This document shows positions 4,069-27,240 of a DNA stretch of 39,777 nucleotides, piece by piece. Position 1 is the stretch's first letter. Every line of letters starts with the position of its first letter. The translations under genes and the position numbers were made by a program. The notes under the pieces were generated by a model. The model made no database searches. It was given only the letters and a program-made list of their open reading frames with translations, and was not told the DNA's origin. This DNA comes from a virus. The stretch is taken from positions 1 through 39,777 of IMG/VR virus record IMGVR_UViG_3300009610_000026; one strand, 5' to 3'.

Positions 4069-4581
4069 TTACTTTGGTAGTTGCTCACTCGGCATGGAAG
4101 AGAGTCTAGCCGGTAACGCTGAACTTGCTGCCGCAGAAGGCAAAGGTACATCATCTTCTCCAGGTGTTTCATCGATATACTTATATCTTCCACGGTTTAA
4201 AAATTCCTTTTCGAGTACCGCTAACCTTTCCATAAGAGACGATGGGGTTATTTGATTTTTTTTCAGTTCGTTGACTTCGTTTTTCAACTCTTCTATTTCT
4301 TCTTGTAAAAAGTGAGTTGCACGTTGAAATTCTTTTGAAATATAACGAATGTTATGACGATGAGCAAATATCGCACTCAATGCTGTAAGTCCTAACATAG
4401 AAAAAGCGCCTATCAAAAGGCTGAATTGTAGAAGAATGGCAGAAGCTATAAGCATAACCATGCTTGCCGCACTACCAAATACAATAATGGTTGTAATGTT
4501 TCGGTCAGAGATTTTTGCTTCTCTCCTTTTACTGGCTGGAGATAGCGGAATAGGTACGTGAGAAATTGCAGGAACAGACAT
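4069..4581 (-). CDS. Membrane protein with a 45-residue uncharged bilobed hydrophobic hairpin followed by a coiled coil (Inc-like topology; class II holin-like alternative)
   Basis: Residues 29-73 (ITTIIVFGSAASMVMLIASAILLQFSLLIGAFSMLGLTALSAIFA) contain no charged residue. They are followed by EEIEELKNEVNELKK heptads. The gene has its own TATAAT (4606..4611, minus strand) and an AGGAGG SD. Confidence 0.6.
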   Translation of the reverse strand: MSVPAISHVPIPLSPASKRREAKISDRNITTIIVFGSAASMVMLIASAILLQFSLLIGAFSMLGLTALSAIFAHRHNIRYISKEFQRATHFLQEEIEELKNEVNELKKNQITPSSLMERLAVLEKEFLNRGRYKYIDETPGEDDVPLPSAAASSALPARLSSMPSEQLPK

Positions 4582-5200: not shown

Positions 5201-5401
5201 TTATTCCTTTTTCTTTCGAGCGCATTTTTTCTCAGGTTTTGGTTTATCTTTTTTTTTCAACTCGAGGATGATCTCATTAAGCTTAGCGTAATTATTTTCA
5301 AGATTTGCTATGCGTTGATTTGCTTCATATATTTCCCCTTGCTGCATTTCTTTTTGGATATGAAGAATATGGAGACCCAACCATTTTTTTATGATGTTCA
5401 C
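5201..5401 (-). CDS. Small coiled-coil protein with basic C-terminus
   Basis: 66-aa ORF with an ATGA-type overlap with the upstream gene. It is the last gene of the membrane-protein operon. Confidence 0.5.
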   Translation of the reverse strand: MNIIKKWLGLHILHIQKEMQQGEIYEANQRIANLENNYAKLNEIILELKKKDKPKPEKKCARKKKE

Positions 5402-5997
5402 TTATTACCATCCATTTTTTGGAGATGATCATGGAATGCATCGGCTAATCTGAAGTGGTAAGATGCCATTTTTAAGTTATGCTCTATGTCATAATATTCA
5501 TCAATACAACATATTCCATACTGTCCAAGCAAAGATAACGTTGCAGCTGCTAGTCGAAAACTCCAAGGACCTGGAACGGCAGCTATTGCTGTAGTAAAGG
5601 CCATTTTCGCTTTCTCTCGTTGCTTGAGTGTAGGCATATACCAGCATCCTTCTTCACCCTTCTTATAAAAATCTCTTCCTTTATCTCTATGAAGACGAAA
5701 AGACATTCTGGCGGTTTGCCTATCGGTATTTCTGACAACTTTTAAACATGCTTTGGAAAGAGAGTTGTCATCGTTGATATAATAATCTGGAGTCCCGTCT
5801 GGGACAAATTTCACTGGAGCATGGTAGTAAGCAACTTCACAGTCTTGATAGCAATAAGCTTTAGAGAAATACATACTTCCAAGAATGACAAAGAACCACA
5901 TGATATAAGAGGACCAATCACGTCTTCTTTCTCCGAAGAAAAACTCAAGTGTTGCAAATAAGACAACAATTGAAAATGCAGCTAATATGGTTATCAT
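5398..5997 (-). CDS. Cys-rich membrane protein (two N-terminal TM helices)
   Basis: 199 aa, with TM segments ITILAAFSIVVLFATLEFFF and IMWFFVILGSMYF. Coupled by 4-nt overlaps on both sides. Confidence 0.6.
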   Translation of the reverse strand: MITILAAFSIVVLFATLEFFFGERRRDWSSYIMWFFVILGSMYFSKAYCYQDCEVAYYHAPVKFVPDGTPDYYINDDNSLSKACLKVVRNTDRQTARMSFRLHRDKGRDFYKKGEEGCWYMPTLKQREKAKMAFTTAIAAVPGPWSFRLAAATLSLLGQYGICCIDEYYDIEHNLKMASYHFRLADAFHDHLQKMDGNK

Positions 5998-6302
5998 TTT
6001 TGTTCCTTACAGCAATCACAATCTAGATCGTGGATATTCAGACCATCCGGACTCTTATCCCAGATAATCTTTGGTTTATTTTGACAATCACAATCCGGAT
6101 CATGAACTATGCAATCACTGAGGTTTTGGTGCCAAATTATATAACGATGGCCTGAAAATTCCGTCTTAGATGCTTTACCTAATCCTAGTTTTTCGATCGG
6201 ATAGAGTTTTACATAATGTTTTTCATCATAAATGATCTTGTAAGTGATGAATACTGCGATTAAAATGACACAGATGAAAGGAAAAATTAAATAGCTTCTC
6301 AT
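5994..6302 (-). CDS. Single-pass membrane protein with duplicated HDxDCDC motif
   Basis: The N-terminal TM is YLIFPFICVILIAVFITY. The C-terminal part has HDPDCDCQ and HDLDCDCC. Confidence 0.6.
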   Translation of the reverse strand: MRSYLIFPFICVILIAVFITYKIIYDEKHYVKLYPIEKLGLGKASKTEFSGHRYIIWHQNLSDCIVHDPDCDCQNKPKIIWDKSPDGLNIHDLDCDCCKEQK

Positions 6303-6544
6303 TTCTTACCCTTTCCTTCAAGAGTACATACTCTTCCATGAAATTGCATCATAGCGTTGTGAAATTGATTCATATCCTCACGAATGCCTTTTAGGATTTC
6401 ATTAGTTTCTTTTCTGCTTTCCTCTATTTTTTTATCATTGTGAAGATATAGGGCAATAACAGTTCCTAAATTGGTAGCAATTATTGCAAAAACTGTAATA
6501 GCTTGTGTCCAATCTAGACCGTGAACAACTTGAGTTGGTTCCAT
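6299..6544 (-). CDS. Small single-pass membrane protein, FHxR[LV]CxxE family member B
   Basis: TM AITVFAIIATNLGTVIALYL, then a helical tail ending QFHGRVCTLEGKGKK. Paralogous to 6573..6815 and 13803..14039. Confidence 0.65.
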   Translation of the reverse strand: MEPTQVVHGLDWTQAITVFAIIATNLGTVIALYLHNDKKIEESRKETNEILKGIREDMNQFHNAMMQFHGRVCTLEGKGKK

Positions 6545-6572
6545 AATTTTTTCCTGTAGCTAGTGTATTTTA

Positions 6573-6815
6573 TCATTTCTTTTCTTTTTCTATTAGGCAA
6601 AGACGATTATGAAAGTCTTTCATTTCCATATGAATTGCATGAGTAAGTTCACGAATAGCATCAAGTTTGTTATCCATATGCCTAATATCGGATCGAGTTT
6701 CAGTTCTTACCCAAAAAAATAATGGAACAACAATCGCAAGATTGGCAATAAAAACACCACCCACCGTACCTAAAATCGTAAGAATTTCAGTTGAAATTAC
6801 TGCTTCATTTGACAT
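6573..6815 (-). CDS. Small single-pass membrane protein, FHxR[LV]CxxE family member A
   Basis: The ATG at 6815 is preceded by GGAGGAAAAAATC. TM ILTILGTVGGVFIANLAIVVPLFFW, with a tail ending DFHNRLCLIEKEKK. Confidence 0.65.
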   Translation of the reverse strand: MSNEAVISTEILTILGTVGGVFIANLAIVVPLFFWVRTETRSDIRHMDNKLDAIRELTHAIHMEMKDFHNRLCLIEKEKK

Positions 6816-6854
6816 GATTTTTTCCTCCGGCTTACAGCTTATCATAGATAGGCA

Positions 6855-6883
6855 TTGAAATCAAATCCCTAACGCCTTAGACT
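6855..6883 (+). promoter_or_regulatory. Sigma70-like promoter candidate (TTGAAA-17-TAGACT)
   Basis: The hexamers and spacing were read directly from the sequence. Confidence 0.3.
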
Positions 6884-6889
6884 GATTGC

Positions 6890-6955
6890 GAAAATACAGC
6901 ATCAATGTTTTTTCTCCACGACATCGGAGGCTGTCGAAAACTGCCTCCGTTTTTT
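6890..6955 (+). ncRNA. Candidate ~65-nt small RNA, antisense to the 5' leader of the membrane-protein operon
   Basis: Predicted from the promoter-like TTGAAA-N17-TAGACT (6855..6883) and the terminator at 6925..6955. No ORF is present. Confidence 0.3.
6925..6955 (+). terminator. Plus-strand intrinsic terminator inside a minus-strand block
   Basis: CGGAGGC-11 nt-GCCTCCG followed by TTTTTT. There is no T-run in the minus-strand reading. Confidence 0.55.
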
Positions 6956-10217: not shown

Positions 10218-10325
10218 ATATTTTCAGATTCACACAAATTATCAGATTGTGGTTTCATGCGGTAATTGGGCTTTTATGATGCAAAGAAGATCAGGAAAAA
10301 AAGATTATTGGGCTGTCATAGCCAC

Positions 10326-10721
10326 ATGGAAACAATGAAACATATTTTAGAGATACCTATGCGTCTCATGTCTGAGGCCAATACTCATCAACATTGGAGG
10401 AAAAAATATGAAAGAAATAAACGACAACAAAAAGGAGTTAAACTCGTTTGGCTCAGCAAGAATCCTAACGTGGGCCTCCCTTGTAGAGTCTGTCTCACAA
10501 GAATTGGCCCTCGAGCGCTTGACTCAGACAACCTCGCCTACTCCTTTAAAGCAATCAGAGATCAAGTCGCAGATCTCATCATACCTGGAAAAGCTGCAGG
10601 ACAGGCAGATGGCGACGACCGAATAACGTGGGAATACAGTCAAGAAAAAGGCCTCCTAGGCATTAGAATTGAAATAGACGGCGTGACGAATATAGCAGCA
10701 ACCGGTATGGCTCTATGTTAA
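10326..10721 (+). CDS. RusA-like Holliday junction resolvase (probable)
   Basis: LEIPMRLMSEANTHQHWRKK...RIGPRALDSDNLAYSFKAIRDQVADL...GDDRITWEYSQ follows the RusA-family pattern (S.aN..HW; D.DNL..K...D; DD..I). ATG at 10326 preferred. Confidence 0.55.
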   Translation: METMKHILEIPMRLMSEANTHQHWRKKYERNKRQQKGVKLVWLSKNPNVGLPCRVCLTRIGPRALDSDNLAYSFKAIRDQVADLIIPGKAAGQADGDDRITWEYSQEKGLLGIRIEIDGVTNIAATGMALC

Positions 10722-13633: not shown

Positions 13634-13816
13634 ATGAAATATATCACCTGTGCTTTATCAGCAATTTTATTATCGAGTTGTGCTGCAGGTTCAGCTACGG
13701 CTGGATATGCACTAAAAGCACAGTCGGCAGATTCTTTAACAGTTAAAGCCGAAAGAAGTCTCATTGATAGGGTAAAAGAAGAGCTTTCCAAGGAGAACAA
13801 GAATGGAAAAGATTGA
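13634..13816 (+). CDS. Small lipoprotein
   Basis: MKYITCALSAILLSSC has a signal peptide plus the lipobox LLSSC. The mature part is about 44 aa. Confidence 0.65.
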   Translation: MKYITCALSAILLSSCAAGSATAGYALKAQSADSLTVKAERSLIDRVKEELSKENKNGKD

Positions 13817-14039
13817 TGTAATTTCTACGAAAATAGACATGATTCTTTTGATTATACAATTTGGTTTTGGTATATTTTTTGCTCTTCTCTTGATTGTTTG
13901 GGGTACATTATGGAGATCCATAGGCAAGCTAGATGAAAAATTAACCGATGTTGATCGTCGCCTTTGTCGTATGGAAGGAGCATTTTCAATGAAAGAGTGT
14001 TGTAGGCTTAGTCCAGATGAAATCAAAAAGGTGGTATAG
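13803..14039 (+). CDS. Small single-pass membrane protein, R[LV]CxxE family member C
   Basis: TM ILLIIQFGFGIFFALLLIVWGTLW, with tail LDEKLTDVDRRLCRMEG. Overlaps the lipoprotein gene by 14 nt. Confidence 0.6.
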   Translation: MEKIDVISTKIDMILLIIQFGFGIFFALLLIVWGTLWRSIGKLDEKLTDVDRRLCRMEGAFSMKECCRLSPDEIKKVV

Positions 14040-14255
14040 ATGACAACAATGCAACTAGAACTCCCATTCCTTTTCGAAGATGTAAACTTACGAGCTGCAA
14101 GAATTGAAGAAAAATTCAGCGCATACCAAGATAAAATGAGAAAAGCTATGTATGCAAAACTTGGTGAAGAGAAAAAGAAAAGAATGGAGCTAGAAAATAG
14201 ACTTAATGTTATTGAATCTGCTATATGTCAAGGTAAATTGGAATTTAAGCTTTGA
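14040..14255 (+). CDS. Hypothetical coiled-coil protein
   Basis: 71-aa ORF starting immediately after the upstream stop. Confidence 0.5.
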   Translation: MTTMQLELPFLFEDVNLRAARIEEKFSAYQDKMRKAMYAKLGEEKKKRMELENRLNVIESAICQGKLEFKL

Positions 14256-15607: not shown

Positions 15608-15742
15608 TTACCACACATAGTTTATGCTACCAGTAGGAAGCTTTGGTTCAGGTTTTTCTAAAATTGGACTTTCAGAAGTTTCAATAACGATCGGAAGAAG
15701 TACTGGCAACTGATAAGGGGTTTGAGGAGGAAGAGGATTCAT
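15608..15742 (-). CDS. 44-aa Pro-rich peptide (hypothetical)
   Basis: The ATG overlaps the stop of the paralogue gene (TAATG). Sequence MNPLPPQTPYQLPVLLPIVIETSESPILEKPEPKLPTGSINYVW. Confidence 0.3.
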   Translation of the reverse strand: MNPLPPQTPYQLPVLLPIVIETSESPILEKPEPKLPTGSINYVW

Positions 15743-16236
15743 TATAATTCTTTTGTTTCCATTATAGTCAACCAGGCTCTCGAAACACCACCCATGAGTC
15801 TTCCTGCAGCTGCATCTCCATTAACCGCATAGTGTCTATTTGCTCCGTTTGTTTCAGCTTGACCAATCCTAATCTTGAATGTTGTGGAACTTGTCGTTCC
15901 AGATGTCATGACATGTTTAACATAATAAAGACCGCCTGAACTTGAACCATATCTTAAATTCTGTGCAGCAAGTGCATTAGATGTTGTGTCTTGAAATAAA
16001 GCACAGCCAGCTGAATTTGAAGCACTACCAAAAGTACCACAACAAAAAAATTCTATAGTTAAAATAGATGTTGCCGACTTAGGCGTTATAGCTAATGTTA
16101 TTACTTCTGTACCTAATGTATTTGTAGGGATTGCATCTCCATCAGCCATTTGATTATTGCAGGTGATTACACTTGCTGTAGAATTGCTAACAAATTGTAA
16201 AACAGGATTTAATGAGTCAACACTATTTTGAGTCAT
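15742..16236 (-). CDS. Fibre-operon paralogue 1 (164 aa), putative receptor-binding/tip protein
   Basis: Shares conserved blocks with the two upstream genes (ALFQDTTSNALAA, MTSGTTSSTTFKIR, GGVS..LTI.E). ATGA coupling. Confidence 0.6.
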   Translation of the reverse strand: MTQNSVDSLNPVLQFVSNSTASVITCNNQMADGDAIPTNTLGTEVITLAITPKSATSILTIEFFCCGTFGSASNSAGCALFQDTTSNALAAQNLRYGSSSGGLYYVKHVMTSGTTSSTTFKIRIGQAETNGANRHYAVNGDAAAGRLMGGVSRAWLTIMETKEL

Positions 16237-16715
16237 AAATACTCCGTAATCGTTAACGAAGCCTTAGAAACACCACCCATGAGTCTTGTTCCAGAAGTGT
16301 TAGCATTGATATATGAAGTTCCCGAAACTATACCACCTCTAATCCTGAATGTTGTGGAACTTGTCGTTCCAGATGTCATGACATATTTTAAATATTGATA
16401 TCTTCCTGCGCTAGTTGTTCCAGAAATAGATGAGGATGCAGCAAGTGCATTAGATGTTGCATCTTGAAATAAAGCAACTATTAAAGAATTAGCTCCTGCT
16501 GTAGTATCTTTAATCATAGGAGCGATAAAAACAATTTCTAAAATAGAAGTAGAAGTTTTAGGAGTTATTGTAGCTGTTATTATTTCAGTTCCTTCGCCAA
16601 TCTGAGGAATACTATCATCAGATGGAATATTTCCAGTACACGCAATAACGCTGGCTGTTGTAGAAACAACTTTCTGGATTATAGGTTGTGTTGTATTTAT
16701 GGTATTCTGGGTCAT
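16233..16715 (-). CDS. Fibre-operon paralogue 2 (160 aa)
   Basis: Contains SIPQIGEGTEIITATITPK, ALFQDATSNALAA, MTSGTTSSTTFRIRGG. ATGA overlaps on both sides. Confidence 0.6.
   Translation of the reverse strand: MTQNTINTTQPIIQKVVSTTASVIACTGNIPSDDSIPQIGEGTEIITATITPKTSTSILEIVFIAPMIKDTTAGANSLIVALFQDATSNALAASSSISGTTSAGRYQYLKYVMTSGTTSSTTFRIRGGIVSGTSYINANTSGTRLMGGVSKASLTITEYL
16333..16379. repeat. 47-nt block identical to 16815..16861 (39 nt also identical at 15877..15915)
   Basis: ccacctctaatcctgaatgttgtggaacttgtcgttccagatgtcat is present in paralogues 2 and 3. Paralogue 1 differs by one base at the edge. Confidence 0.9.
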
Positions 16716-17194
16716 ATATATTCTATAATTGTGAACGAAGTTGCTGAAACACCACCAAATGATCTATTGGTCGAAGCTGTTACACTGTTTCCATATAGTG
16801 GATCAACTGTTGATCCACCTCTAATCCTGAATGTTGTGGAACTTGTCGTTCCAGATGTCATTGTATGTATAAGGGTAGCCGAAGGACCAAGTGTTGAAGT
16901 AACAAGGTTATCAGATATCGCGCACAATGCATTAGATGTTGCGTCTTGAAAAAGAGCAAGAGTCATAGGCGTTGAACCACCAGAAGTAGGATGTATATTT
17001 CCTGTATAAACTATTTCTAAAGTTGATACTGAATATTTAGGTGTAATCGCTAGTGTAATTATTTCAGTTCCTTCACCAATCTGAGGAATACTATCATCGT
17101 ATGGTATTGTTCCAGAACATGTTATTAATGCACCTGTCGATGTGGTAACATATTGAATAATATTCGATGCTGCATTTATTCGATTTTGAACCAT
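16712..17194 (-). CDS. Fibre-operon paralogue 3 (160 aa)
   Basis: Has the same blocks and a 47-nt identity with paralogue 2. AAGGA SD. Confidence 0.6.
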   Translation of the reverse strand: MVQNRINAASNIIQYVTTSTGALITCSGTIPYDDSIPQIGEGTEIITLAITPKYSVSTLEIVYTGNIHPTSGGSTPMTLALFQDATSNALCAISDNLVTSTLGPSATLIHTMTSGTTSSTTFRIRGGSTVDPLYGNSVTASTNRSFGGVSATSFTIIEYI

Positions 17195-17203
17195 AATTAT
17201 TCC

Positions 17204-17872
17204 TTATGCAACTGTCAAGTTTCCTTGAGAGACGCCCGTGCAGGTCCACACACTATTTGCCGTTGTTCCTATAATCTGAATTGTATCAAAAGCATTTGTT
17301 CCAGTTATTGTACCACCAGATGAAGTTACCTGATTACCAAATTGGATTGTGTCGCCTGTGCTGGCTGTTATTCTCCATAAACCTGCACCTTTACCAACGA
17401 TATGGATAATATCCCCTATAGCGAATGTTGCAGGTAGGTTAAATGTTAGGAGTGATCCTAGATTTGCGATATAACCATGATTTATAACAGCTGAAACTGG
17501 GCTAGCTGTTTCTTCCGTCCAAGCCATGCCACCCGATACATTGATAGTTACCGTATTTCCAGATCCTGAAGTCGTAACATTTGATCCACCTAAAATATTT
17601 AATATATTTGCAGATGGTATCGCATTTCCAGAATCAGTCGTAAAAGTAGTTGGAACGGAAGCACCTGCCGCAATAGTAATAGTGCCTGAACCATTGGTAA
17701 TGGTAACGCCTGATCCAGCAGTTAAAGTAGATTTAACGACATGAGGTAATGCTGATGATCCTATCCAAAGTTGACCATCAACAAGAAGTCTTCCAGCTCT
17801 TTCTGTTCCATCAAAACTAGCATTGTCAGCATGCACAACGGTTTCTTGACCGGTAATGAAACTAAATCCCAT
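17204..17872 (-). CDS. Tail fibre/spike-associated protein
   Basis: 222 aa, Gly/Thr/Ser-rich and beta-strand-like. It has the motif VPTTFTTDSGNAIPSANILNILGG, shared with the upstream gene. Confidence 0.5.
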   Translation of the reverse strand: MGFSFITGQETVVHADNASFDGTERAGRLLVDGQLWIGSSALPHVVKSTLTAGSGVTITNGSGTITIAAGASVPTTFTTDSGNAIPSANILNILGGSNVTTSGSGNTVTINVSGGMAWTEETASPVSAVINHGYIANLGSLLTFNLPATFAIGDIIHIVGKGAGLWRITASTGDTIQFGNQVTSSGGTITGTNAFDTIQIIGTTANSVWTCTGVSQGNLTVA

Positions 17873-18414
17873 TATGTTACCATCCTAAATTCTAATAGTG
17901 AATTCCAGTTTATAGAAAGAGCTGGATCTCCTTGAACTTGTAAGAGAGCATTGTTACCACTTACATTAAGAAAAATATCGGATAATGCTAAGGCTGCTTC
18001 TTCGAACTCATCATGATATGCAGCAGAAATTAATGTTGCAGATGCTCCATCTGTTCTTACAGCTCCAGCGAAGGCATAGCTTCCACCAGCTGGTGTTGAT
18101 GAATTAAATGCTTGGACATTACCGTAAACCATATATGTTGCTGGTGTGGCACCCAAAGGAAGAGTAATAATAGTAGTCAAGGCATCAGCTGGTGTTGTAA
18201 CTGTTCCTGTGGCTCTATTAGTCAAAACTACATTCAGAGTGTTTCCTGAACCAGTTGTTCTTATTCCATTATCGATATCTATAGTATCATCTATACCCAG
18301 AACATTTAAAATATTTGCCGCTGGAGTTGCTGTTCCTGAGTCTGTAACGAAATCTGTTGGTACATCTGGTGGAGATGGACCACCACTCGTACTAATAATA
18401 CCTGCTTGGCTCAC
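17872..18414 (-). CDS. Tail fibre/spike-associated protein
   Basis: 180 aa with a GTG start. It has the motif VPTDFVTDSGTATPAANILNVLG. TAATG junction with the downstream gene. Confidence 0.5.
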   Translation of the reverse strand: MSQAGIISTSGGPSPPDVPTDFVTDSGTATPAANILNVLGIDDTIDIDNGIRTTGSGNTLNVVLTNRATGTVTTPADALTTIITLPLGATPATYMVYGNVQAFNSSTPAGGSYAFAGAVRTDGASATLISAAYHDEFEEAALALSDIFLNVSGNNALLQVQGDPALSINWNSLLEFRMVT

Positions 18415-18417
18415 GAT

Positions 18418-18750
18418 CTATCCTTGTATGATATATTGAGACACAAGGTAGACGCTTCCTGTCCCAGCACTACCTTTAACCATAATCTGAGTTCCTTCTG
18501 GAAGAGCAGGATAAGCGCTAGAAAGTCCAACTTTTCCTTCATCGTATAGCCAAAATGAGCTAGCTGGTGCAACATCCATGTCATTAATACCATCTATAGA
18601 TATGGTTACTAGGACAGTGGAGTTATTGACAAGTTTACAAATATATGACGGATATAACAGAGGTGTTCCTAAATTCTGATATGATCCTGTAAAGGTAGCT
18701 GAATCAATACTTCTAAGCGTTTCCCAAGCAATTCTATTTGTGAAGGCCAT
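18418..18750 (-). CDS. Hypothetical fibre-operon protein
   Basis: 110-aa ORF tightly packed between fibre genes. Confidence 0.5.
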   Translation of the reverse strand: MAFTNRIAWETLRSIDSATFTGSYQNLGTPLLYPSYICKLVNNSTVLVTISIDGINDMDVAPASSFWLYDEGKVGLSSAYPALPEGTQIMVKGSAGTGSVYLVSQYIIQG

Positions 18751-18751
18751 T

Positions 18752-18946
18752 TTATTCCTGTTCTGGTTGTTTTTCTACAACTTTAGGTTTGGATGCTTCG
18801 TTTTCAGCATTTATTCTTTCAACTACATATCCTCTAATCTGTGACAAAGCATCATAAACTTCACCTAAAGGACTCATAGGATCTAATTCCAACGTATATG
18901 TTCTTTCACCGATCTTTACTTCTAAAACTGTTTTCTGCTTAAGCAT
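18752..18946 (-). CDS. Hypothetical small protein
   Basis: 64-aa ORF, 1 nt from the downstream start. Confidence 0.45.
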   Translation of the reverse strand: MLKQKTVLEVKIGERTYTLELDPMSPLGEVYDALSQIRGYVVERINAENEASKPKVVEKQPEQE

Positions 18947-19007
18947 GCTTCTCCTTAGGGTTTTTCACGCAGAAATACACCCTAAGTATTATTTAATCAA
19001 TCAATAT

Positions 19008-21335
19008 TTAGGTCTGACGTATGATCACATAATCGAATACTGAAACGTCAGTTGCAACCGCAGCTCCTAGCGCACTGTATGAGGCTATAGTAAACGAAGC
19101 ACCTGCACTTATTGTCGTTATTGGAAATCCAAGAGCAGGGGACCCATTTAGCGAAGATCTCGTTACGAAGATTCTGTCTCCAGCTGCAATGTTTGTGTTA
19201 TTTACCGTTACGCTACCTGCAATAAGAGTTGCACGACCGATAAAGTCTGTTACGGCACCCCCGTTCATGCTGATTTTTGTTGCAACAGAAGTTAGGTTAA
19301 AGTCAGTAGCACAGTTTACAGCTCCAGATCCAGCAGTAATGTTAACTGCTGTAGCACCTGTTGTGTTACCTATTGTTATAGTCTTTGCAGCTGCGTCAGC
19401 ACCGATATTGATCGCTCCAGTTCCTGTGACAAGTCCGAATGATCCATTGGTGGTAGTCCAAGCACATGCTCCAGTACCACTGTTCACATTAACTGCTGTA
19501 GCACCTGTTGTGTTACCTATTGTAACCGTGTGGGCTATCGCATTCGTTCCGATATTAAGTGCACCAGTACCACAGTCAACTACGACGCTAGTAGCACCTG
19601 TACCATTACCTATTGTTATAGTCTTTGCTGCGGCATCTGTTCCTAAAGCGATTGCTCCTGTTCCGGTTATAAGACTAAATGTACCGTTAGTAGTCGTCCA
19701 AGCACATGCTCCAGTACCACTGTTTACGTTTACAGCGGTTGCCCCAGTCACGTTACCAATGGTCACTGTGTGCGCAATTGCGTTAGTTCCTACATTCAAG
19801 GCTCCAGTTCCGCAATTCAAAACAAGGCTTGTTGCGCCTGTGCTATTACCCATCGTAATAGTATGGGCGGCTGCATCGGTACCGATATTGATCGCACCTG
19901 TGCCCGTTACCAACGCAAGAGTAGCGTTAGTCGTAGTAATGGTTGATCCACCAGAACCAGTATTGATATTGACAGCAGTAGCACCTGTGATGTTACCAAT
20001 CGTAATGGTTTTAGCAGCTGCGTCAGCACCAAGGCTTATTGCGCCGGTTCCTGTAACTAAACCGAAAGTCCCGTTAGTAGTCGTCCAAGCGCAGGCTCCA
20101 GTACCACTGTTTACGTTTACAGCGGTTGCCCCAGTCACGTTACCAATTGTGATAGTGTGAGCCGCAGCATCCGTACCCAGGTTAATGGCACCCGTTCCAG
20201 TTGCAAGTGCAAATGCACCGTTGGTTGTCGTCCATGTCGAACCACCCGTACCTGTATTAACATTCACTGCTGTTGCACCTGTGATATTGCCGATAGTGAC
20301 AGTATGAGCTATCGCATTCGTACCAATATTTATAGGTCCAGTTCCAGAATCCAGAACTAGAGAAGTAGCACCTGTACTATTACCTAAAGTAATCGTATGA
20401 GCTATTGCATTTGTACCAATGTTTAAAGCACCTGTTCCACAGTTTAGAACGACGCTAGTAGCTCCTGATGAGTTACCGACAGTTATCGTTCTAGCAGCTG
20501 CCCCAGTACCTATGTTGATTGCTTGAGCTACGGCATCATTACCGATTCCAATTACGCCAGCTGAAGAATTAAGTTCAAGGACGCCTGCTGAGTCAATCAA
20601 AACTGTATCAGCTGAATTCAAGACGATGTCGCCAGCTCCAGTGCTTGTGACTGTAAAGCTTCCTGTACCTGTATTCACCGCAACCGCAGTAGCACCAGTG
20701 ACGTTACCTACAGTAATTGTACGAGCACCAGCACCTGTACCAATATTAACAGCACCTGTAGATGCATCTGAAGCAAGGTTAAGGGCTGTGGCACCCGTTG
20801 TAATTGTAGCGCTAGCCGTAGCCGTAAGAAGTCCACTAGCTCCAAGTGTTGTAAACGCACCGGCAGCTGGAGTTGTTCCACCAATCGCTGGAGGTGTTGT
20901 CAGAAGAGTTGTTAGCTTAAGCGGTGTAACGATTCTAGCATCGTCTGTACCTGTATTCGTTTCGGCTTGTGTTGCGATCTCGGCTATACCGGAGATGAGT
21001 TCTGTAGCAGCAGGAATGGCCCCGACAACAACACCTGCGATAACGGTTGCTACATCATTAGAAGTAGGAACGGCGCCAGCAGGAGCTGTACCCGCTTGCA
21101 ATTCCGCTAAAGTTGCCAACTCTACGATACCGGGAGTTGTCGTAGTAGCTAAACCGTTACCTCCGACTACCCATGTAGTACCATTAAATGTATAACCCGT
21201 AGCAGGAGTGGTAGATTTATCAAAATATAGTTGACCAAGTTCTCCTATTAGATTGGATGCAGGTGCTCCAAATCCTGATAAAGGACCTGATGTAACTGAT
21301 ACTAGACCGCCGATTCCGTAAACTGTTTTTGGCAT
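19008..21335 (-). CDS. Tail fibre with internal periodic beta-helix-like repeats
   Basis: The N-terminal motifs GIVELATLAELQAGT and GIAEIATQAETNTGTDDARIVTPLKL are the AT.AE...G.....VTP..L fibre motif. There are eleven copies of the core IGxxAxAxTITIGNxTGATxVxxN. Confidence 0.75.
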   Translation of the reverse strand: MPKTVYGIGGLVSVTSGPLSGFGAPASNLIGELGQLYFDKSTTPATGYTFNGTTWVVGGNGLATTTTPGIVELATLAELQAGTAPAGAVPTSNDVATVIAGVVVGAIPAATELISGIAEIATQAETNTGTDDARIVTPLKLTTLLTTPPAIGGTTPAAGAFTTLGASGLLTATASATITTGATALNLASDASTGAVNIGTGAGARTITVGNVTGATAVAVNTGTGSFTVTSTGAGDIVLNSADTVLIDSAGVLELNSSAGVIGIGNDAVAQAINIGTGAAARTITVGNSSGATSVVLNCGTGALNIGTNAIAHTITLGNSTGATSLVLDSGTGPINIGTNAIAHTVTIGNITGATAVNVNTGTGGSTWTTTNGAFALATGTGAINLGTDAAAHTITIGNVTGATAVNVNSGTGACAWTTTNGTFGLVTGTGAISLGADAAAKTITIGNITGATAVNINTGSGGSTITTTNATLALVTGTGAINIGTDAAAHTITMGNSTGATSLVLNCGTGALNVGTNAIAHTVTIGNVTGATAVNVNSGTGACAWTTTNGTFSLITGTGAIALGTDAAAKTITIGNGTGATSVVVDCGTGALNIGTNAIAHTVTIGNTTGATAVNVNSGTGACAWTTTNGSFGLVTGTGAINIGADAAAKTITIGNTTGATAVNITAGSGAVNCATDFNLTSVATKISMNGGAVTDFIGRATLIAGSVTVNNTNIAAGDRIFVTRSSLNGSPALGFPITTISAGASFTIASYSALGAAVATDVSVFDYVIIRQT
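19332..20744 (-). repeat. Coding tandem repeats inside the fibre gene (24-aa core, spacing alternating 31 and 49 aa; last two 80-aa super-repeats nearly identical)
   Basis: The cores start at residues 198, 275, 306, 337, 386, 435, 484, 515, 564, 595 and 644. A block of at least 50 nt near 19721..19770 is repeated near 20108..20157. Confidence 0.85.
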
Positions 21336-21365
21336 AACAACCTCTTTATTTAAAATCTGACAATG

Positions 21366-21404
21366 CCTAGATAAAACAAATGTTGAAATTATCTAGGTTT
21401 GACA
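21366..21404. promoter_or_regulatory. 9-bp inverted repeat CCTAGATAA-14-TTATCTAGG followed by TTGACA, between the fibre and packaging operons
   Basis: Read directly from the sequence. TTGACA is at 21399..21404, with GTAAAT 16 nt downstream. Confidence 0.35.
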
Positions 21405-21437
21405 ACATTTAACGATTAAGGTAAATGCTGGTTATAT

Positions 21438-21671
21438 ATGGAAAAAATTGAGGTAGAAGAGGGATATTATTCGGTAAAAGAATTCGCAGTTAAGCTTAGC
21501 ATTCACTCTAATACAGTGAGAAGAGCCATAAAAAGTGGTCGTATAGTTGCTTTTAAGGTGGGTTCTGGTAAAAAATCAATTTACAGAATAGCTCATAGTG
21601 AGATTGGAAGAATAGCTTTATTTGACATGAAAGAATTGATTAGAAAGATGCTTAGAGAGGAAAATGAGTGA
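21438..21671 (+). CDS. Excisionase-type HTH (HTH_17-like) protein immediately upstream of TerL; candidate small terminase/DNA-recognition subunit
   Basis: YSVKEFAVKLSIHSNTVRRAIKSGRIVAFKVGSGKKSIYRI is present. The gene overlaps the TerL start by 8 nt. Confidence 0.55.
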   Translation: MEKIEVEEGYYSVKEFAVKLSIHSNTVRRAIKSGRIVAFKVGSGKKSIYRIAHSEIGRIALFDMKELIRKMLREENE

Positions 21672-22944
21672 TCTTTTAGCTCCTAAACAACTAGAATTCA
21701 TCATTGGCAGCACAAGTCATTGGAATCTTGCCCATGGGTCGGTTCGTTCAGGTAAAACTGTCGGTACTTTATTTAGATTCATGCAGGCTGTAGATCAATG
21801 TCCTGATTCGCAAATATGGATGGTAGGACATAGCTCAGATACTATTTATCAGAATGCTATCAGATTATTGCTTGAAAGTGATCAACTTGCTATCTTTAGA
21901 CCCTTTTGCACCTGGCAGTCAGGGAAAAGACAACTTTTATTTAGAGATAAAGTAATCTCAACTCTAGGTGCAAAAGATGAGGGGGCTATTGGTGGTTTTC
22001 AAGGTAAAACATTTTCCCTTGTATATTGTGATGAAATGACTCTTTATCCAGAGTCTATCATAGACATGATCGACACACGGTTGAGTAATCCCCATTCGAT
22101 GGGTTTTGCTTCTATGAATCCTTCACATCCCAATCACAAGATAAAGAAATGGATAGATAAAGCAGAAAAAGGTGACCCTAATTATTATTCCCTTCACTTC
22201 ACCTTGGATGATAACCCTTATGTTGATAATACATATAAACAACGCATACGAGACTCTTTGTCAGGTCTCTTTTACAAGCGCAATTACTTGGGGCTATGGT
22301 GTCTTGCTGAAGGTGCTATATTTGATTTTTTTGATCGTAATATACACGTTGTGGATCGTCCTCCTATTGCTGCGGAATATTGGATCGCTGGTATTGATTA
22401 TGGTAGCGTTAATCCTTTTTGCTGCATCCTCATTGGTGTTTCTACTGGCAAATATACGCAAACAGGCAAGAAAATGTGGGTGGAGAAAGAATATTTCTGG
22501 GATCCCAAAGTGACAGGAAGACAAAAAACTAATTCAGAATTTGCAGAAGCTGTCCAACAATTCTTAGAGCCTTATAGTGTAAGAAACATTTACGTAGATC
22601 CAAGTGCCGAAGCTTTTCAGATCGAACTCAGAAGAAAAGGCATTCATATTGTTCATGCTAACAACTCAGTAGATGACGGAATTCAGATGATGACTTCCGA
22701 GATGAAAAAAGGCAATCTCTTTGTTTGCTCAGAATGTACAAACACTATTCGTGAAATTGAATCCTATGTTTGGGATAGCAAAGCCGCAGAAAAGGGCTAT
22801 GATGAACCAATGAAAAAAGATGATCACGCGATTGACTGCCTTAGGTACTGTGTAGCGACGCATAAAGCTATTGCATACGATCAACATGCGCACAATCCTA
22901 ATCAATACCTAAAAGATAGGTTTGGCAGGCAACAAAACTTTTGA
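21664..22944 (+). CDS. terL: Terminase large subunit
   Basis: Has Walker A GSVRSGKT, Walker B LVYCDE, and nuclease-type acidic motifs IAGIDYG, YVDPSAE, DDHAIDCLRY. Confidence 0.9.
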   Translation: MSDLLAPKQLEFIIGSTSHWNLAHGSVRSGKTVGTLFRFMQAVDQCPDSQIWMVGHSSDTIYQNAIRLLLESDQLAIFRPFCTWQSGKRQLLFRDKVISTLGAKDEGAIGGFQGKTFSLVYCDEMTLYPESIIDMIDTRLSNPHSMGFASMNPSHPNHKIKKWIDKAEKGDPNYYSLHFTLDDNPYVDNTYKQRIRDSLSGLFYKRNYLGLWCLAEGAIFDFFDRNIHVVDRPPIAAEYWIAGIDYGSVNPFCCILIGVSTGKYTQTGKKMWVEKEYFWDPKVTGRQKTNSEFAEAVQQFLEPYSVRNIYVDPSAEAFQIELRRKGIHIVHANNSVDDGIQMMTSEMKKGNLFVCSECTNTIREIESYVWDSKAAEKGYDEPMKKDDHAIDCLRYCVATHKAIAYDQHAHNPNQYLKDRFGRQQNF

Positions 22945-26589: not shown

Positions 26590-27240
26590 ATGACCGCACA
26601 GACACAAGAAAGTCAACCCCAAGAAATAAAACCAAACGACAAAGAGCTTAACTTTCGTGCTCTTGAAGCCAAGTATCAAAGAGAATTAGCCAATGAAAGA
26701 GCAGCTCGCGAGCAAGTCGAAAGAGAATTAGCCTCTAGAAGTCAAGCCGCTTTACATGAAGATGAAGATGATGACGAACCTTATGTCGATAAAAAGAAGC
26801 TAGAAAAGAAACTAGCCAGATTTGGCGAAACCACTATGAAACAAACCCAATCCGAGATTCAAAGTGCGGTTCATGCTGCATTAAGAGAGGAGAGGAAACA
26901 AAACTGGATCAAATCAAACCCAGATTTTTATGAGGTACTTCAACATGCTGATAAATTTGCTCAAAAAGATCCGGAATTGGCTGAGTCAATCCTGGAGATG
27001 CCCGAAGGTTTCGAGCGACAAAAGCTTGTGTACAAAAATATCAAGGCGCTCGGTATCCATAAGCCCGAAATCAAAACCCCAGGCATTCAGGAAAAGATCG
27101 ACGCGAACCGTAAAGGACCCTACTATCAACCAACAGGAGTAGGTTCTGCTCCATATGCGTCTCAAGGTGATTTTAGTGCTAGTGGACAAAAGCAAGCTTT
27201 TGAGAAAATGCAGGAGTTAAAAAATAGATTGAGGATTTAA
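26590..27240 (+). CDS. Scaffolding protein (probable)
   Basis: 216 aa, highly charged and helical (ELNFRALEAKYQRELANERAAREQVERELA). Positioned between the portal and capsid genes. Confidence 0.55.
   Translation: MTAQTQESQPQEIKPNDKELNFRALEAKYQRELANERAAREQVERELASRSQAALHEDEDDDEPYVDKKKLEKKLARFGETTMKQTQSEIQSAVHAALREERKQNWIKSNPDFYEVLQHADKFAQKDPELAESILEMPEGFERQKLVYKNIKALGIHKPEIKTPGIQEKIDANRKGPYYQPTGVGSAPYASQGDFSASGQKQAFEKMQELKNRLRI

Follow-up and report, generated by a model that had tools for sequence, protein, structure and literature searches.

A tandem pair of FHxRLC proteins in an uncultured phage belongs to a widespread, undescribed family of single-pass membrane proteins

What is the role of a string of five small genes that heads an operon in an uncultured phage without a recognizable endolysin? 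The string lies at positions 5201 to 6845 of IMG/VR record IMGVR_UViG_3300009610_000026, all 39,777 nucleotides (nt) of which were analyzed (here, the window). The initial annotation described it as one coupled operon of small membrane proteins, including a family with a C-terminal FHxR[LV]CxxE motif, and considered it a candidate for noncanonical lysis, membrane remodeling, or superinfection exclusion. We found that the first two genes, a tandem pair of subtypes A and B, belong to a genuine, widespread, and previously undescribed family of single-pass phage membrane proteins. Based on architecture and gene context, we favor a role as membrane-tethered adaptors, followed by lysis control, superinfection exclusion, type I toxin activity, and spanin function, in that order.

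Both proteins match the family profile over their full length, including the N-tail, the membrane helix, and the C-terminal motif. The B-type protein has a short acidic N-tail, one membrane helix, the juxtamembrane sequence WVRTETRSDIRHMD, a helical spacer, and the C-terminal sequence KDFHNRLCLIEKEKK. In the A-type protein, the membrane helix ITVFAIIATNLGTVIALYL is followed by DKKIEESRKETNEILK, and the C-terminal end reads QFHGRVCTLEGKGKK. The two genes had been proposed to be paralogous, and pairwise comparison bears this out (28% identity over 64 ungapped residues; E = 1e-8). Their motif codons differ (Arg, cgt versus aga; Cys, tgc versus tgt), indicating that selection acted on the protein rather than on the DNA. 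In related contigs, subtype A follows the pattern ...ATNLGTVIALY..DKKIEE.RKET... and subtype B the pattern ...LFLW[NV]R[ST]ESRAD.RH.D..., and an MDWTQ-like N-tail and the C-terminal motif are common to both subtypes. Homologs retain the tail motif, whose loss from them would have refuted the initial annotation; across the family, it takes the form KDFHxRLCxIEE. All 15 metagenomic homologs retrieved with the 81-amino-acid (aa) A-type protein end in DFHGRLCxIEERxKK. Among the 140 unique family open reading frames (ORFs) used for all anatomical figures, 112 contain FHxRLC, and variants without the Cys keep the His (FHYRLLEIE and FHGRLERQD).

A profile combining the two subtypes retrieved 3357 proteins at E <= 0.01; none is named, and among the 120 listed only one carries a precomputed Pfam domain. 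A HMMER scan of 1.84 billion cluster representatives recovered 604 clusters at 50% identity, and proteins from the best 150 of these 604 clusters are 47 to 147 aa long and show no domain fusion. In IMG/VR, 264 stretches encode a relative. The 79 loci that we fetched are mostly 30- to 42-kb viral contigs with the tail, head, and recombination proteins of the window, from which we conclude that the family is a hallmark of one large uncultured phage clade. Samples that carry such contigs include SRR5738921, ERZ27267614, and JGI 3300027533. These loci were sampled because they contain the family, so its universality in the clade cannot be judged from them. That the family was unrecognized, as initially stated, was confirmed: Pfam assigned no consistent family to 40 diverse members, and a PHROG scan of 40 members gave weak matches to families of unknown function only (phrog_1009, 1863, and 6664). 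Pfam and PHROG scans of the five string proteins and their neighbors returned nothing significant, and no PDB sequence was related to the family profile.

The window is a complete circular phage genome of ~39.65 kb: a direct repeat of 123 bp occupies its termini, and an ORF of 439 aa spans their junction. Its genes include those for TerL, a P22-type portal, the major capsid protein, RecT, and YqaJ. Among 50,697 GenBank phages, megablast and tblastn detected nothing related to the genome, its portal, or the B-type protein, and Rfam had no match in the window. The G+C content is 0.42 to 0.47 at 18000..22000, where the tail-fiber gene lies and the terminase gene begins, versus 0.35 to 0.39 elsewhere.

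All five ORFs of the string are present on the minus strand as annotated (Table 1). The 4-nt overlaps reported for the last four genes were confirmed as ATGA (6302/6299), ATGA (5997/5994), and GTGA (5401/5398), and a gap of 28 nt, from 6573 to 6544, separates the first two genes. A GGAGG Shine-Dalgarno sequence at 6828..6824, nine bases before the ATG at 6815, supports this start and thus the 80-aa form of the first gene product. The GTG start of the last gene agrees with the N termini of its homologs (MNFIKKWLGI...). In a 19-residue hydropathy scan, four of the five proteins have an N-terminal membrane helix, as originally described, and the 66-aa protein has none.

Table 1. Genes and sequence signals discussed in the text, with positions in the window.
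Position	Strand	Feature	Evidence or distribution
4069..4581	-	170-aa protein; two neighboring membrane helices (residues 32-73), coiled-coil tail	Same gene string; conserved in relatives
5201..5401	-	Soluble coiled-coil protein, 66 aa; tail strongly basic (KKKDKPKPEKKCARKKKE)	Always after the 199-aa gene
5398..5997	-	199-aa polytopic membrane protein of a narrow clade	11 homologs
5994..6302	-	Single-pass protein, 102 aa; C-terminal part rich in Cys (HDPDCDCQ ... HDLDCDCC)	Only in near-identical contigs
6299..6544	-	Family member, subtype A, 81 aa	127 bits to family profile
6573..6815	-	Family member, subtype B, 80 aa	97 bits to family profile
6836..6864	-	Promoter-like block TTGATT-17 nt-TAAGCT, directly upstream of GGAGG and ATG 6815	Conservation
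6925..6949	-	Hairpin CGGAGGC-AGTTTTCGACA-GCCTCCG, preceded by an A-run	Hairpin scan; conserved in L016, L001, and L017
13634..13816	+	60-aa predicted lipoprotein with LLSSC lipobox; 14-nt overlap with the start of 13803..14039	Only insignificant PHROG matches
13803..14039	+	78-aa single-pass coiled-coil protein (C-type) of a different family	Fails family profile

The anatomy of the family is simple and strongly polarized. An N-tail with a median of 3 residues and a mean lysine-plus-arginine count of 0.14 precedes a single membrane helix, and the mean count rises to 3.3 in the 15 residues after the helix. The C-terminal part, 22 to 91 aa long, contains a helical spacer of very variable length; despite this variation, the motif ends ~5 residues before the C terminus. 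An AlphaFold2 model of the window B-type protein consists of one continuous helix (residues 3 to 79; predicted local distance difference test [pLDDT] score, 86). By the positive-inside rule alone, the predicted topology is N-out/C-in. This would place the Cys in the cytoplasm, where a disulfide is unlikely, and the part of the initial annotation that invoked disulfide-linked oligomers is accordingly not favored. Its other suggestion, a metal link, is possible: His and Cys are spaced i/i+4 on the same helix face and could form a His-x3-Cys metal half-site, yet His is better conserved than Cys.

The five genes do not behave as the single system that the initial annotation implied. Related loci compared with the window are labeled L001, L002, L012, L016, L017, L019, L056, and L088. 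Homologs of the 66-aa protein directly follow the 199-aa gene in L001, L002, L016, and L017, and this pair is the only fixed element. Relatives include family genes without a 199-aa gene as well as 199-aa genes without a family gene upstream; in L017, the 199-aa module is present, with no family gene in the syntenic operon or within 20.6 kb. What lies between the family gene and the 199-aa gene also varies: the window has the gene for the Cys-rich 102-aa protein there, L001 and L002 have one for a 74-aa soluble protein, L012 has one for a Band_7/SPFH protein, and L016 has genes for several soluble proteins. The 102-aa protein had no match in Pfam or PHROG and no relative in IMG/VR. The five genes share one translationally coupled string next to the putative promoter, but, judging from these distributions, they are no single conserved machine: the 199-aa/66-aa pair forms a module of its own, limited to a narrow clade, and the 102-aa gene is a filler. 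Invariant elements of the 199-aa protein are KFVPxGTP, C84, C118-W119, YGICCIDE, and HF..DAF, and the protein was absent from GTDB genomes and IMG/VR. Its AlphaFold2 model is all-helical and of mediocre confidence (pLDDT, 66); Foldseek found no PDB match below E = 1, and we saw no sign that the protein is an enzyme. With a mediocre model and no PDB fold match, the idea that this protein is a hidden lysozyme-like enzyme was dropped but not excluded.

A third family member had been claimed at 13803..14039, and this assignment failed. In a search of window ORFs only, the protein scored 5.8 bits (E = 0.18) against the family hidden Markov model, and BLASTP against the two family proteins gave an E value of about 0.1. 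The Cys of its RLC sequence is not kept in orthologs, which read RLFAVE (L016) and RLVAVE (L017); the element conserved among them is LHMK[ED]CC..SPDEIKK. A profile-profile comparison (hhalign) with the family gave a probability of 67% over 33 columns, a moderate hint of distant kinship. This C-type protein thus appears to represent a separate family, related distantly, if at all, to the FHxRLC family, and several single-pass coiled-coil families like it accompany FHxRLC genes in other loci.

The C-type gene and its lipoprotein neighbor form a pair in an early operon, after YqaJ, and the C-type protein has a conserved C-terminal Cys pair. We rejected the two as a spanin pair, since the gene order is reversed and both proteins are too short; they may be an exclusion pair. 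The next gene, 14040..14255 (plus strand), encodes a member of a soluble 70-aa family that ends in RL(N/E)(V/I)IE..IC[QR]GK and recurs beside membrane families, with an RLxxIE coiled-coil signature in common.

Family genes occur in one to five copies per locus, and 33 of 62 consecutive family-gene pairs are directly adjacent. Their location with respect to tail, recombination, and packaging genes is not fixed. Many IMG/VR loci have short islands of them lying between tail operons of opposite orientation; in L002, the operon that contains them lies just upstream of TerS/TerL and runs straight into these genes. The leftward operon of the window, which they head, also carries HNH, ParB-like, and TerS-like genes. 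Same-strand neighbors encode single-pass coiled-coil and other small membrane proteins, helix-turn-helix (HTH) proteins, and resolvase, as well as ERF/RecT, YqaJ, ParA, methylase, and RNA ligases. A Band_7/SPFH protein (PF01145; E = 5e-29) is encoded at L012 1096..1944, directly downstream of a family gene and overlapping it. It belongs to a cluster of 135- to 282-aa proteins whose genes come immediately after a family gene in three of the four loci of the cluster; the 140-aa representative of this cluster had no Pfam match. Directly downstream of two family genes in L056 (5723..6745, plus strand) lies the gene for a 340-aa protein that combines a membrane segment of the Gly-zipper type with a U-box-like domain (PF04564; E = 6.5e-4; 20.2 bits versus a cutoff of 21.4).

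A solitary, typical A-type gene of the family was found on a contig that resembles a bacterial chromosome (L019; ENA ERZ25039472 contig_13061; 80 kb; G+C content, 0.40). It adjoins a transposase-type HTH gene, and genes nearby encode RHS/YD-shell, PIN/Phd, McsA/McsB, NifS/NifU, DUF2608, and Myb-like proteins.

Our favored explanation, to which we assign a probability of roughly 35%, is that the FHxRLC proteins are accessory membrane-tethered adaptors that alter host-membrane physiology, as host takeover and exclusion proteins do, and are not half of a holin-endolysin cassette. An acidic, MDWTQ-like N-tail of 3 to 5 residues would lie outside the cell and the rest of the protein inside. Each protein would form one long helix, and oligomers could assemble through the polar-lined membrane helix and the cytoplasmic coiled coil. 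The near-invariant C-terminal helix, KDFHxRLCxIEE[RK]xKK, would then be held at the inner face of the host membrane, where it may serve a conserved partner as docking site or switch or possibly bind a metal via His-x3-Cys. PspB (PF06667), the bacterial phage-shock protein B, is an N-out/C-in single-pass protein of ~75 aa that docks its partners at the membrane through a leucine zipper in the cytoplasm. The family is similar in size and architecture, but the similarity in sequence is not significant (one member matched weakly, at E = 0.03), and, unlike PspB, FHxRLC proteins are phage encoded and multicopy.

Several points weigh against an adaptor role. No homology links the family to a function, and its context fits several roles. 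Host lysis is needed, and the lack of any other recognizable lysis gene keeps a lysis role alive. The L002 operon leads into the small and large terminase genes, the classical position of a lysis cassette and also that of Mu gp25. Finally, the predicted topology has the positive-inside rule as its single basis, and the IMG/VR loci that we sampled were preselected for the family.

The best-surviving alternative is lysis control, which we regard as possible but somewhat unlikely. FHxRLC proteins would then be of the holin/antiholin type or releasin-like, permeabilizing or depolarizing the cytoplasmic membrane late in infection; they might suffice alone in a host with little peptidoglycan or act with an unrecognized lysin. 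Candidates for a missing lysin among the conserved unknown proteins of the clade are those encoded at 17204..18414, 26590..27240, and 10266..10721, as well as the 199-aa protein. In the complete circular 39.65-kb tailed-phage genome, no endolysin, holin, or spanin was found by Pfam or PHROG, in agreement with the initial annotation that the genome has no identifiable endolysin. FHxRLC proteins are small and have one membrane helix and a charged, hydrophilic C terminus, as expected of holins, and A-plus-B pairs resemble holin/antiholin pairs. Among GenBank phages, tblastn with the A-type protein gave a single, weak match (E = 2e-3), in which the subject was the N-terminal membrane anchor of a “cell wall hydrolase” from a Salinibacter phage, and there were a few sub-threshold PHROG matches to Rz-like spanins. 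However, the endolysin neighbor expected of a holin is missing: no recognizable endolysin lies beside any family gene in ~90 loci, and Pfam identified none among 58 same-strand neighbor representatives. The up to five copies per genome, their variable positions, and neighbors concerned mainly with DNA metabolism and regulation also argue against a lysis cassette.

By architecture, the closest analog is the releasin Mu gp25 (DUF2730; PF10805), a 99-aa, N-out/C-in protein with four periplasmic residues whose gene lies two upstream of TerS (PMC9239132). FHxRLC proteins likewise are short and have an N-terminal membrane helix, few residues predicted to lie outside, and a helical, predicted cytoplasmic domain, and their genes can lie upstream of the small terminase gene. 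Unlike Mu gp25, they are multicopy, have a His/Cys C-terminal motif, and have no endolysin within 5 genes. Homology was rejected (hhalign probability, 0.2%), and PF10805 matched none of 40 members at E <= 0.1 and no window protein at E <= 1. Single-helix holins and XhlA (PF10779) are comparable in small size, membrane helix, an RLxxxE coiled-coil segment, a charged end, and related gene pairs. In contrast to the family, the membrane helix of XhlA is C-terminal, and the family has neither a Pfam XhlA match nor an endolysin partner. The only protein to match XhlA was the unrelated C-type ortholog of L017, far below the cutoff (E = 0.003); the same ortholog had a sub-threshold match to DUF2730 (E = 0.07).

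Superinfection exclusion is a less likely alternative still. As moron products in the inner membrane of an infected or lysogenic cell, the proteins would block DNA entry by related phages, with paralog arrays broadening the range. HK97 gp15-like exclusion morons encode small single-pass inner-membrane proteins and form islands by tail genes that are variably present. The FHxRLC genes resemble them in product size, single membrane pass, and location in islands between oppositely oriented tail operons, and the variable copy number and position and the stand-alone chromosomal copy are consistent with this idea. On the other hand, no homology to HK97 gp15 or any known exclusion protein was found, and the conserved part is C-terminal and predicted to be cytoplasmic, whereas the usual site of action of entry blockers is the periplasmic or membrane side. 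In addition, no integrase, which would suggest a temperate lifestyle, was found in the window.

The sequence upstream of the first gene bears on a further alternative, that the proteins resemble type I toxins, membrane peptides kept in check by antisense RNA and encoded in tandem arrays, as in the hok, ldr, and ibs loci. The proteins are small and single pass, their genes form tandem arrays, and, in the subclade of the window only, a terminator-like hairpin on the plus strand lies just upstream of the first gene. Read on that strand, the hairpin at 6925..6949 resembles an intrinsic terminator, complete with T-run; across the window, L016, L001, and L017, differences in its stem are compensatory and its 11-nt loop is retained. 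Between hairpin and gene, these four have in common a block with the consensus TTGAYTTCAA...TA(A/C)nnT, which a consensus promoter scan did not flag but whose position and conservation suggest the start of a transcription unit. In L017, the same hairpin and block precede an unrelated gene instead of a family gene, so the block belongs to the operon and not to the family. Together, hairpin and block may combine insulation by a terminator with a late promoter, or they may function in antitermination. Family genes show no enrichment of antisense terminators in their upstream regions (7/147, versus 62/1946 for other genes), and the proteins are longer than typical toxins and carry a conserved soluble helix. 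We consider a toxin role very improbable.

Least credible is an i-spanin-like role, with N-in/C-out topology, a periplasmic coiled coil, and Cys residues forming intermolecular disulfides as in lambda Rz: although an N-terminal membrane helix, a coiled coil, and a conserved Cys recall lambda Rz i-spanins (phrog_214 and phrog_739) and 3 of 40 members had sub-threshold Rz-like spanin PHROG matches, the charge distribution predicts the opposite topology, the extramembrane part of just 22 to 91 aa is far too short, there are multiple copies per genome, and no adjacent or embedded lipoprotein offers itself as an o-spanin partner, 6299..6845 containing no ORF with a lipobox and the sole lipoprotein (13634..13816) being encoded upstream of the unrelated C-type gene.

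Three features hint at intracellular bacterial hosts: tail proteins with a Pgp3 domain, Inc-like proteins, and the U-box-like neighbor in L056. Three tandem paralogs of ~160 aa and a 775-aa protein are encoded in one operon (15742..17194 and 19008..21335, both on the minus strand). Two of the three paralogs match the C-terminal domain of the Chlamydia plasmid protein Pgp3 (PF05475; 31.9 bits against a cutoff of 25, and E = 4e-4), and the 775-aa protein resembles the proximal subunit of the T4 long tail fiber (PDB 9x3r_M; E = 6e-9). The paralogs are probably receptor-binding proteins, and their similarity to Pgp3 suggests a link between that protein and phage tail adhesins. Chlamydial Inc proteins are characterized by a bilobed hydrophobic domain of two helices. 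Proteins with two adjacent membrane helices in such a bilobed domain, flanked by a polar N terminus and a coiled-coil or Pro/Ser-rich tail, are encoded by the window (the 170-aa protein in Table 1), L001 (11597..12010), L012 (348..746), L017 (11508..12050), and L088 (106..978). These Inc-like proteins had no Pfam IncA match, neither they nor the Pgp3-like proteins matched a plasmid in tblastn searches, and we found no tailed phages of Chlamydiae in the literature. A eukaryote-type E3 ligase domain in a phage, such as the U-box-like domain of L056 would be, would point to an intracellular bacterial host. A more specific scenario, which we consider improbable, is that the FHxRLCxIEE proteins are membrane-lesion or lysis-timing effectors of a very large, endolysin-less clade of uncultured 35- to 42-kb phages. 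The lack of an endolysin would reflect hosts that are intracellular bacteria with reduced peptidoglycan, for example, Chlamydiae-like bacteria, and the cytoplasmic His-x3-Cys helix would be a metal or redox switch that triggers oligomerization.

Small phage membrane proteins govern the timing and manner of cell death and the entry of other phages, and most are unannotated. The FHxRLC family comprises hundreds of sequence clusters without a Pfam entry and is a hallmark of a big uncultured clade. Its conserved 12-residue motif, predicted to be cytoplasmic, provides a handle on function, as bait for pull-downs, as a target for His, Arg, Cys, and Glu mutants, and as an annotation profile. If the family proves to be a lysis or exclusion device, an annotation gap would be filled in thousands of metagenomic phage genomes. 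If the proteins are lesion or lysis-timing effectors in bacteria with reduced peptidoglycan, they would constitute a new, endolysin-independent lysis system, and these would be the first tailed phages assigned to such hosts.

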